Below the pieces are notes generated by a model. It worked only from the letters and a program-made list of their open reading frames with translations. It searched no databases and had not been told where the DNA came from. A stretch of 64,000 nucleotides of DNA from NCBI RefSeq assembly GCF_013122565.1, contig NZ_CP053258.1. One strand, given 5' to 3'. Positions 9,926 through 12,072 of the stretch are shown piece by piece (position 1 is the first letter of the stretch; each line of letters opens with the position of its first letter). A program made the translations under genes and the position numbers. Source of the stretch: Escherichia coli (lineage in GTDB: Bacteria; Pseudomonadota; Gammaproteobacteria; Enterobacterales; Enterobacteriaceae).

Positions 9926-10996
9926 ATGAAGCTGGTTGAACACTACATCATGCGTGGTACGCGCCGTTTGGTGCTGATTATCGTCGGTTTTCTGATCTTT
10001 ATTTTCGCCAGCTACTCCGCACAGCGTTATCTGACCGAAGCGGCAAATGGGACATTAGCACTTGATGTTGTGCTGGATATCGTTTTTTACAAGGTGCTGA
10101 TTGCACTGGAGATGTTGTTACCTGTTGGACTGTATGTGTCAGTTGGCGTGACGCTAGGGCAGATGTATACCGACTCGGAAATCACAGCTATCTCTGCGGC
10201 GGGGGGCAGTCCGGGACGCTTGTACAAAGCCGTTCTTTATCTGGCGATACCGCTAAGTATTTTTGTCACCCTTCTGTCGATGTATGGTCGTCCGTGGGCT
10301 TATGCGCAGATTTATCAACTGGAGCAGCAGTCGCAGTCGGAGCTGGATGTTCGCCAGTTGCGGGCAAAGAAATTTAACACTAACGATAACGGACGAATGA
10401 TCCTTTCGCAGACGGTTGATCAGGATAATAATCGCCTGACTGACGCGCTGATTTATACTTCTACTGCCAATCGAACCCGCATTTTCCGCGCCCGTTCGGT
10501 TGATGTGGTTGACCCATCTCCCGAGAAACCGACCGTTATGTTGCACAACGGCACCGCCTATCTTCTCGATCATCAGGGGCGTGACGACAACGAACAGATC
10601 TACCGTAATCTGCAATTACATCTGAATCCGCTGGATCAAAGCCCTAATGTCAAACGCAAAGCGAAATCGGTCACGGAGCTGGCGCGCTCCGTCTTTCCAG
10701 CCGATCATGCCGAACTGCAATGGCGACAAAGCCGTGGCCTGACCGCATTGTTGATGGCGCTGCTGGCCATTTCATTAAGTCGGGTAAAACCGCGGCAGGG
10801 GCGATTTTCAACGTTATTGCCACTGACGTTGCTGTTTATTGCCATTTTTTATGGCGGCGACGTCTGCCGTACGCTGGTGGCTAACGGCGCGATTCCTCTC
10901 ATTCCTGGTTTGTGGTTAGTACCCGGACTCATGCTAATGGGCCTGCTGATGCTGGTTGCACGCGACTTCACTTTGCTGCAGAAATTTTCCCGATGA
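9926..10996 (+). CDS. LptF/LptG-family (YjgP/YjgQ) permease-like membrane protein
   Basis: 356 aa; N-terminal TM helix, periplasmic-domain-sized central region, C-terminal TM cluster; overall architecture like LptF. Confidence 0.7.
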   Translation: MKLVEHYIMRGTRRLVLIIVGFLIFIFASYSAQRYLTEAANGTLALDVVLDIVFYKVLIALEMLLPVGLYVSVGVTLGQMYTDSEITAISAAGGSPGRLYKAVLYLAIPLSIFVTLLSMYGRPWAYAQIYQLEQQSQSELDVRQLRAKKFNTNDNGRMILSQTVDQDNNRLTDALIYTSTANRTRIFRARSVDVVDPSPEKPTVMLHNGTAYLLDHQGRDDNEQIYRNLQLHLNPLDQSPNVKRKAKSVTELARSVFPADHAELQWRQSRGLTALLMALLAISLSRVKPRQGRFSTLLPLTLLFIAIFYGGDVCRTLVANGAIPLIPGLWLVPGLMLMGLLMLVARDFTLLQKFSR

Positions 10997-12072
10997 ATGT
11001 TTTCAGTCGCTATTTAATCCGTCATCTCTTTCTCGGTTTTGCCGCCGCCGCAGGGCTATTGCTGCCGCTTTTTACCACCTTCAACCTGATTAACGAACTG
11101 GATGATGTCAGCCCGGGCGGTTATCGCTGGACTCAGGCGGTGCTGGTGGTGCTGATGACCTTACCGCGTACACTGGTCGAACTTTCGCCGTTTATCGCAT
11201 TATTGGGAGGGATTGTTGGCCTGGGGCAGTTATCGAAAAACAGTGAGCTTACCGCCATTCGCAGCACTGGGTTTTCTATCTTCCGTATTGCACTGGTGGC
11301 GCTGGTTGCCGGGATATTGTGGACTGTTTCGTTAGGCGCGATAGATGAGTGGGTGGCGTCGCCGTTGCAGCAACAGGCGCTGCAAATCAAATCGACCGCC
11401 ACCGCGTTGGGGGAGGACGATGACATTACCGGCAATATGCTGTGGGCCAGGCGCGGCAATGAATTTGTGACGGTGAAATCGCTGAACGAGCAGGGCCAGC
11501 CGGTGGGCGTGGAGATATTTCATTATCGCGACGATCTCTCGCTCGAATCCTACATTTATGCACGCAGTGCCACCATTAAAGACGACAAAATGTGGAGCCT
11601 GCATGGTGTGAATCATAAAAAATGGCTTAACGGTAAAGAAACGCTGGAAACATCAGATAATCTTGCCTGGCAATCGGCCTTCACCAGTATGGATCTTGAA
11701 GAGCTATCGATGCCGGGGAATACTTTTTCTGTCCGTCAGCTTAATCATTACATCCATTATTTGCAGGAAACCGGGCAACCCAGCAGCGAATACCGCCTTG
11801 CACTGTGGGAAAAACTGGGGCAACCCATCCTGACCCTGGCGATGATTTTGCTGGCTGTGCCGTTTACCTTTAGCGCCCCGCGCTCGCCAGGGATGGGTAG
11901 CCGTCTCGCTGTAGGCGTCATCGTTGGCTTACTCACCTGGATCAGCTATCAAATCATGGTCAATCTGGGGTTGCTATTTGCGTTGAGCGCACCTGTTACC
12001 GCGCTCGGTTTACCGGTAGCGTTTGTACTGGTGGCGTTGAGCCTGGTGTATTGGTATGACAGACAACATTAA
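10993..12072 (+). CDS. LptF/LptG-family (YjgP/YjgQ) permease-like membrane protein, second of pair
   Basis: 359 aa from ATG 10993 (MNVFSRYLIRHLF...), overlapping upstream stop (ATGA); track ORF 10912 is an upstream in-frame extension; LptG-like topology. Confidence 0.7.
   Translation: MNVFSRYLIRHLFLGFAAAAGLLLPLFTTFNLINELDDVSPGGYRWTQAVLVVLMTLPRTLVELSPFIALLGGIVGLGQLSKNSELTAIRSTGFSIFRIALVALVAGILWTVSLGAIDEWVASPLQQQALQIKSTATALGEDDDITGNMLWARRGNEFVTVKSLNEQGQPVGVEIFHYRDDLSLESYIYARSATIKDDKMWSLHGVNHKKWLNGKETLETSDNLAWQSAFTSMDLEELSMPGNTFSVRQLNHYIHYLQETGQPSSEYRLALWEKLGQPILTLAMILLAVPFTFSAPRSPGMGSRLAVGVIVGLLTWISYQIMVNLGLLFALSAPVTALGLPVAFVLVALSLVYWYDRQH

Follow-up and report, generated by a model that had tools for sequence, protein, structure and literature searches.

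The way in which bacterial sphingolipids travel to the outer membrane came to light only with work on Caulobacter between 2024 and 2026, in which LptF2 and LptG2, a second pair of Lpt-type permeases, were proposed as sphingolipid transporters in 2024 (PMC11324152). In pull-downs, Caulobacter LptF2 and LptG2 form a complex that also contains the sole LptB, and the pair can be deleted only where anionic sphingolipid is missing, i.e. in spt or cpgB mutants (bioRxiv 10.64898/2026.04.12.717747). According to the same preprint, lptF2/lptG2 occur in many alpha- and gammaproteobacterial sphingolipid loci, lptC2 is restricted to Caulobacter, and the Escherichia coli UTI89 locus is displayed with its homologues (Figure 2B; 10.64898/2026.04.12.717747). 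Here we compare these systems with an lptF2/lptG2 gene pair at positions 9926–12072 of a 64,000-nucleotide stretch of E. coli DNA (contig NZ_CP053258.1 of assembly GCF_013122565.1; the window). We consider it likely that this pair is a sphingolipid extractor borrowing the ATPase LptB. An earlier annotation of the window (the sequence-only reading) had interpreted the pair along similar lines, and that interpretation is already in the literature, as the kind of system was described in 2024–2026 and displayed for E. coli; the answer obtained in Caulobacter is re-derived here from E. coli sequence.

The E. coli pair resembles Caulobacter crescentus LptF2/LptG2 (CCNA_01214/CCNA_01213; CC_1156/CC_1155) in being a second F+G pair within a sphingolipid locus, and in both species the locus lacks lptB and the housekeeping lptFG lie elsewhere. 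Caulobacter has LptC2 and the MsbA-like CC_1166 and makes CPG2, whereas the E. coli locus is devoid of LptC2 and CPG2 genes and instead encodes a MOP flippase, three P-loop proteins, a YtfJ-family periplasmic protein and a 274-aa protein. The Caulobacter pair is known by experiment and the E. coli pair from sequence alone. The closest non-enteric relatives are the pairs of Pseudomonas, Azotobacter, Nitrosomonas and Methyloversatilis in CPG2-type clusters (PMC11324152, Fig. 7), with identities to the E. coli pair (F/G) of 53/50% for P. umsongensis and 47/42% for Methyloversatilis. These clusters share with the E. coli locus the core gene set and a small residue in place of LptF R212, but carry CDP-OH_P_transf, DAGK_cat, Metallophos and NTP-transferase genes, and in some cases an MsbA-like ABC exporter, all of which are missing from the Enterobacterales version. 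With the E. coli LptB2FGC complex, the lptF2/lptG2 products share family, fold, the logic of an F+G heterodimer, overlapping genes and the coupling-helix Glu. They differ in being accessory, whereas the housekeeping pair is universal and essential, in being encoded at pitB/glcC and not at pepA, in the loss of inner-core contacts and R212, and in having no lptC, lptA or lptB nearby.

Both genes lie on the plus strand, with lptF2 at 9926–10996 (356 aa) and lptG2 at 10993–12072 (359 aa) overlapping through an ATGA at 10993–10996, as the sequence-only reading had placed them. In a mechanical list of open reading frames, the longest frame of lptG2 begins upstream at a GTG at 10912; we set its start at the ATG at 10993 because this agrees with the RefSeq annotation, because the gene lengths of 1071 and 1080 nt are the same in Serratia and Hafnia, and because the alignment to LptG runs from residue 2. 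The profile search that the earlier reading had proposed returned strong matches to the Pfam family LptF_LptG (PF03739) for LptF2 (E = 9.2e-54, residues 7–345 of 356) and, end to end, for LptG2 (E = 7.3e-69, residues 6–353 of 359), so a lack of similarity to this family can be set aside. Scores also exceeded the NCBIfam equivalog cut-offs (TIGR04407/TIGR04408) for LptF (318 bits vs. 230) and LptG (308 bits vs. 240), respectively. In BLASTP comparisons, LptF2 was 29% identical to K-12 LptF (E = 2e-22) and LptG2 was 28% identical to K-12 LptG (E = 1e-39), while F/G cross comparisons and LptF2 against LptG2 gave no significant match. By reciprocal BLASTP and NCBIfam scores, LptF2 is an F-type and LptG2 a G-type subunit, encoded side by side.

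An AlphaFold2 (AF2) model of LptF2 (predicted local distance difference test, pLDDT, 81) has helices at residues 3–40, 46–82 and 97–137, strands over residues 150–232, and further helices at 258–284, 297–319 and 331–355. The modelled topology comprises three transmembrane (TM) helices, a short cytoplasmic coupling helix (85–91), a periplasmic beta-strand domain and another three TM helices. LptF chains were the best Protein Data Bank (PDB) matches to the model (TM-score 0.83 to the LptF of P. aeruginosa LptB2FG) and F chains ranked above G chains, while the beta-jellyroll segment alone had no match in a PDB sequence search. The LptF/LptG-like length and topology described earlier are thus borne out by full-length profile matches and by the LptF fold of the model. 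Among solved structures, LptF2 was equally close to Pseudomonas or Vibrio LptF and to E. coli LptF, which argues for an old paralogue and against a recent duplicate.

The genes for ceramide synthesis are all located within 6 kb of the pair. On the minus strand, spt (12107–13195) encodes a serine palmitoyltransferase of the betaproteobacterial type, acpR (13195–13443) a specialised acyl carrier protein, epi/cerR (13475–14389) a reductase of the NAD-dependent epimerase/dehydratase family and aasR (14386–16074) a fatty acyl-AMP ligase/acyl-AcpR synthetase; on the plus strand and divergent from aasR, yghO (16478–17620) encodes an aca/bCerS-type N-acyltransferase. This layout, based on RefSeq annotation of the syntenic region in O55:H7 CB9615 and on family scans, matches the sphingolipid (dihydroceramide) locus of E. 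coli B/BL21 (ECD_02850–02854), of which AasR, AcpR and Spt have been studied biochemically and yghO has been assigned as the N-acyltransferase (PMC9386255). What the sequence-only reading had called a lipid locus is therefore the known dihydroceramide locus of non-K-12 E. coli (aasR-cerR-acpR-spt plus yghO).

Association with ceramide genes was also apparent in relatives. Orthologues at 64–89% identity, all annotated as LptG, were found in E. albertii, Hafnia, Shimwellia, Citrobacter, Serratia, Pantoea, Erwinia, Sodalis and Klebsiella indica; in an exhaustive search of 1.84 billion representatives, the next relatives were at 50% (Pseudomonas umsongensis group), 45% (one contig) and 44% (Methyloversatilis), followed by matches at 34–37%. 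Genomic contexts were looked up for ten close relatives, and in nine of them the pair stood beside spt-acpR-reductase-aasR and/or a YghO-like gene with head-group genes. The F+G pair was less than 10 kb from aasR, the reductase gene, acpR and spt in Serratia, Hafnia, P. umsongensis, Methyloversatilis and two metagenome contigs, and adjoined YghO-like and head-group genes (NTP_transf_3 with CDP-OH_P_transf and/or DAGK_cat) in Nitrosomonas Is79A3, one short contig and one metagenome-assembled genome (MAG). One MAG among the ten contexts showed no sphingolipid linkage. Across contexts, the identity of the pair tracked that of Spt, AasR and YghO. In a neighbour-joining tree of 142 LptG-type proteins, those from sphingolipid contexts clustered with LptG2 of the window, apart from K-12 LptG.

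A tblastn table of these loci delimits a co-conserved core of LptF2, LptG2, Spt, AcpR, reductase, AasR and YghO, with identities in Pseudomonas of 53, 50, 61, 46, 50, 59 and 60%, respectively. YghO was 49–60% identical outside Enterobacterales and is co-conserved with the pair in other classes. In the same table, YghT, YghS and YghR, the 274-aa protein and the YtfJ-family protein were confined to Enterobacterales, YghQ had one weak match elsewhere (27%, in one metagenome contig), and CPG2-type head-group genes were absent from Enterobacterales loci. Our analysis thereby adds that Enterobacterales have a variant locus of their own, set apart by its accessory genes, and this gene content indicates that the lipid head group is probably not CPG2. 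In the Pseudomonas and Methyloversatilis loci, an MsbA-like fused ABC exporter (ABC_membrane plus ABC_tran) adjoins the cluster and is a candidate flippase in the position held in Enterobacterales by the MOP-type YghQ.

The pair is a second copy of lptFG in E. coli. Of 5426 complete E. coli genomes, 5425 had the canonical, pepA-linked lptFG and 4131 had lptF2/lptG2, which disposes of the possibility, raised with the sequence-only reading, that this is the only lptFG of the genome. The second pair lies between pitB and glcC and the housekeeping genes in the order pepA-lptF-lptG. All 4144 matches to lptF2/lptG2 were chromosomal except one, on a plasmid. For the source genome, represented by the 64 kb of the window, we infer from the other E. 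coli genomes that lptF2/lptG2 is likewise an accessory second copy.

No gene for a dedicated ATPase was detected. In tblastn searches over the whole window, the queries E. coli LptB, LptC and LptA gave nothing better than E = 0.47 (LptB alone, E = 1.1), and the only LSGGQ strings in the window fall outside ABC genes; the earlier statement that the locus has no cognate ATPase thus holds across the full 64 kb. None of the related loci that were looked up had a stand-alone PF00005 (ABC ATPase) gene. YghT, YghS and the YghR-like protein are about the size of LptB and have a Walker A motif, but their likeness to LptB and other ABC ATPases is confined to the Walker A stretch; they gave weak dTMP-kinase-like matches and have neither a PF00005 match nor an ABC signature. 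We considered these proteins as the missing ATPase and rejected them on these grounds and on their absence from non-enteric loci.

The coupling-helix Glu through which the permeases engage LptB (LptF E84, LptG E88) is retained as E85 in LptF2 and E85 in LptG2, and was present in all 10 LptF-type and 141 of 142 LptG-type aligned sequences. When each paralogue is aligned to its housekeeping counterpart, the coupling-helix window ranks with the most strongly conserved stretches (58% vs. 24–27% overall); in LptF, residues 287–305, which we read as the cytoplasmic TM4–TM5 loop, equal it in conservation. A retained coupling helix implies that the pair needs an ABC ATPase, which the pair itself does not encode. 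By analogy with Caulobacter, LptB would be the obvious partner in E. coli; this reading draws on homology, the retained Glu and conserved synteny. The suggestion in the sequence-only reading of a housekeeping ATPase and transport toward the outer membrane gains support here and would agree with the Caulobacter model.

Residues linked to hand-off and substrate contact in the housekeeping complex have changed in part. The equivalent of LptF R212, a residue at the LptC interface, is A211 in LptF2, and this position was A, S, V or G in all 10 LptF2 sequences extracted from sphingolipid loci, compared to R in the housekeeping LptF of E. coli/Shigella, P. aeruginosa and V. cholerae, the only housekeeping species compared; the adjoining G-x-x-Y/F context is conserved. 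In E. coli, suppressors of lptC deletion were due to changes of LptF R212 to G, S or C in 11 of 11 independent cases, and the mutant complex passes lipopolysaccharide (LPS) straight to LptA (PMC4986956, PMC9972910). The small residue in LptF2, a pattern across sphingolipid loci added by the present analysis, suggests an LptC-independent hand-off, although few housekeeping sequences enter the comparison; it fits the lack of lptC2 outside Caulobacter. Among positions contacting the lipid A phosphates and inner core in LptF/LptG (PMC6744409), those equivalent to LptF R33 and K317 and LptG K62 and R136 are still positively charged, and LptG K34, K40, K41 and R133 and LptF Q248, R263 and K322 are lost. 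In LptG2, the residues aligned with LptG K34, K40 and K41 are N, D and D. The loss of these three lysines was rejected as a signature of a non-LPS substrate, as the housekeeping LptG of P. aeruginosa and A. baylyi also lack K34, K40 and K41 and nevertheless transport LPS.

Under the explanation that we favor, LptF2/LptG2 would be the transmembrane half of an Lpt-type extractor dedicated to sphingolipid. One F-type and one G-type subunit would form a heterodimer in the inner membrane, and its cytoplasmic coupling helices would dock a dimer of housekeeping LptB encoded elsewhere in the genome. ATP binding and hydrolysis would then drive the product of the locus out of the periplasmic leaflet; AasR, AcpR, Spt, the reductase and YghO would make this product, a ceramide-based lipid, and the Ygh accessory proteins would subsequently modify it. 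The lipid would enter the periplasmic beta-jellyroll domains and continue over the shared Lpt bridge (LptA, LptDE) to the outer membrane, and the small residue at the R212 position, where G, S and C substitutions in LptF bypass LptC, would perhaps make a dedicated LptC unneeded. For E. coli, it is thus by inference that we assign LptB as the docking partner, the substrate, its path to the outer membrane and the independence from LptC. This apparently functional second Lpt-type extractor is encoded in roughly three in four complete E. coli genomes, BL21 and pathogenic lineages among them, and the lipid product of the E. coli locus has never been described. If LptB and the Lpt bridge are indeed shared, sphingolipid export would compete with LPS transport for machinery that is targeted by new antibiotics, and the pair may alter outer-membrane composition in non-K-12 strains. 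We also put forward, tentatively, a fuller version for most E. coli and many other Enterobacterales that we consider less likely than not, in which YghR, YghS and YghT, the 274-aa protein and YghQ, in place of the CPG2 enzymes, would provide the head group on a ceramide core, and LptF2/LptG2-LptB, naturally free of R212 as an LptC checkpoint, would export the lipid to the Lpt bridge without LptC, possibly aided by the YtfJ-family protein.

In the source strain, the gene for the first enzyme of the pathway is damaged. An in-frame 84-nt deletion in spt removes 28 codons (residues 37–64; junction near 13089/13090), is flanked by CCGAAGG direct repeats and takes out a segment including GTNNYLGL, which is identical in CB9615, Z1322 and Hafnia; the NCBIfam alignment of the window Spt lacks the corresponding profile positions. 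A 50-nt probe over the junction was covered to at least 80% in none of the 5426 complete E. coli genomes, and we regard the deletion as private to the source lineage. As judged from the sequence, it probably blocks the first pathway step in this strain. A damaged spt beside an intact pair is compatible with the sphingolipid-dependent need for the transporter seen in Caulobacter, but says little for or against it.

Genes of the pair are intact and conserved. lptF2 and lptG2 are uninterrupted and of the same lengths from E. coli to Serratia and Hafnia, and the ratio of non-synonymous to synonymous substitution rates (dN/dS) between the window and two E. coli strains was 0.02–0.10 for the two genes, such that the pair is under purifying selection. 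Compared to strain Z1322HEC0002, dS was 0.28 in lptG2 (10993–12072) and 0.058 in the adjoining lptF2, a contrast that suggests recombination with a breakpoint close to where the two genes meet, and the circulation of divergent lptG2 alleles within E. coli. Window positions 9000–13000 were 98.4% identical to many non-K-12 E. coli genomes. Among complete E. coli genomes, identity reached at most 98.6% over the pair (9926–12072) and at most 99.2% over the glc region (18642–25029), and given these ceilings the window lineage is not represented among the genomes compared. In K-12 MG1655 (3129043–3132408, corresponding to about 7500–17600 of the window), the whole interval from a truncated yghQ to yghO has given way to IS5 (IS5LO/insH9), and K-12 is thus without lptF2, lptG2, spt, acpR, the reductase gene and aasR. 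The K-12 loss of the pair is an IS5-linked deletion together with the rest of the locus.

Several observations weigh against a sphingolipid extractor that uses LptB. The E. coli pair is interpreted from its sequence and by analogy, and we found no report of native sphingolipid production by E. coli. Retention of the coupling helix is family-wide, which calls for some ABC ATPase and does not indicate which one. The accessory set of Enterobacterales differs and has no CPG2 genes, such that comparison does not fix the substrate, and with spt damaged in the window an intact transporter may lack cargo in the source strain. In the neighbour-joining tree, the exact clade had a bootstrap of 21/100 and Nitrosomonas proteins outside it are also sphingolipid-linked; the tree was not used as proof for both of these reasons. 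The Caulobacter pair is 24–25% identical to gammaproteobacterial sphingolipid-locus pairs, compared to mostly 29–57% for the biosynthetic enzymes in the same tables (PMC11324152, S2 tables), and this is no closer than the 28–29% between the lptF2/lptG2 products and LptF/LptG of the same species. At such identity, orthology with the Caulobacter pair, by an ancestry that housekeeping LptFG does not share, is not demonstrated, and the beta- and gammaproteobacterial pairs may stem from a separate recruitment of LptFG. A profile search from the non-enteric members returned names from Beta- and Gammaproteobacteria only and none from Caulobacter, and two DNA scans with patterns from published Caulobacter primers found nothing, although the first used a primer with an engineered start codon that may not match the genome.

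Against this background, three other explanations were weighed. The pair could be idle in the source genome, a stranded remnant that has not yet decayed because a crippled Spt leaves it without substrate, and we give this slightly less than even weight. Removal of the conserved GTNNYLGL segment, the missing NCBIfam profile positions and the absence of the junction from all 5426 genomes argue for it, as does Caulobacter, where loss of spt is tolerated and the transporter is then dispensable; yet the deletion is in frame, its effect on activity is a prediction, and lptF2, lptG2 and all other genes of the locus are intact with mostly synonymous differences from other strains. It also concerns one strain and not the nature of the pair. 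A role as a second LPS exporter, handling LPS or modified LPS under particular conditions, is implied by the RefSeq names and is compatible with scores above both NCBIfam equivalog cut-offs and with the positive charge kept at LptF R33 and K317 and LptG K62 and R136. We nonetheless regard it as unlikely and place it close to the bottom of the range of plausibility, since the two proteins are as little as 28–29% identical to the housekeeping pair of the same species, are missing in K-12 and in roughly one in four E. coli genomes, do not retain R212 or the LptF Q248, R263 and K322 and LptG K41 contacts, and travel with spt and ceramide genes, not LPS genes, across three proteobacterial classes.

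The remaining explanation holds that the pair exports a non-ceramide product of the Ygh module, or that it is energised by a source other than LptB, such as the P-loop proteins of its own operon. In Enterobacterales the pair is indeed co-operonic with yghS-yghR-yghQ-hyp-ytfJ and not with spt, and YghR, YghS and YghT combine a size near that of LptB with a Walker A motif. However, loci of Pseudomonas, Methyloversatilis and Nitrosomonas have no Ygh module, and yet the pair adjoins ceramide genes there, again in loci without a stand-alone ATPase; moreover, the three P-loop proteins lack the ABC signature and PF00005 and resemble nucleotide or small-molecule kinases, and the LSGGQ strings of the window do not supply an ABC gene either. 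We therefore consider this explanation improbable.

The NCBI annotation pipeline PGAP names the lptF2/lptG2 products "LPS export ABC transporter permease LptF/LptG", as they pass the TIGR04407/TIGR04408 cut-offs, and thousands of Enterobacterales genomes carry two gene pairs of the same name. For the second pair, the RefSeq label of LPS exporter is probably over-specific and a mis-annotation.

Upstream of the pair, yghS and the yghR-like gene (5601–7104, plus strand), which encode the P-loop proteins with weak dTMP-kinase-like matches, are the first genes of a probable seven-gene operon ending with lptG2. They are followed on the same strand by yghQ (7150–8499), encoding a MOP/Polysacc_synt-type candidate flippase and truncated by IS5 in K-12, by the gene for the soluble 274-aa protein (8499–9323), which has no family match and occurs in Enterobacterales-type loci only, and by the YtfJ-family gene (9332–9895), which ends 30 nt upstream of lptF2, encodes a signal peptide and is likewise found in Enterobacterales-type loci only. 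Spacings within this run, from yghS to lptG2, range from −4 to 45 nt. Between the convergent stops of lptG2 and spt, a hairpin at 12070–12104 with a 16-bp stem that includes 10 GC pairs is probably a bidirectional terminator. The 274-aa protein had no Pfam match, and it, the YtfJ-like protein and YghO had no match in PDB sequence searches; an AF2 model of the YtfJ-family protein from a four-sequence alignment was unusable (pLDDT 48). This YtfJ-family protein is free of cysteine, has a signal peptide and belongs to the Enterobacterales-only module at 4735–9895 of the window. At the other end of that module, on the minus strand, the divergently oriented yghT (4735–5427) encodes a third P-loop paralogue; the O55:H7 CB9615 annotation has it as a pseudogene interrupted by a stop codon, and in the window it is an intact ORF of 230 codons.

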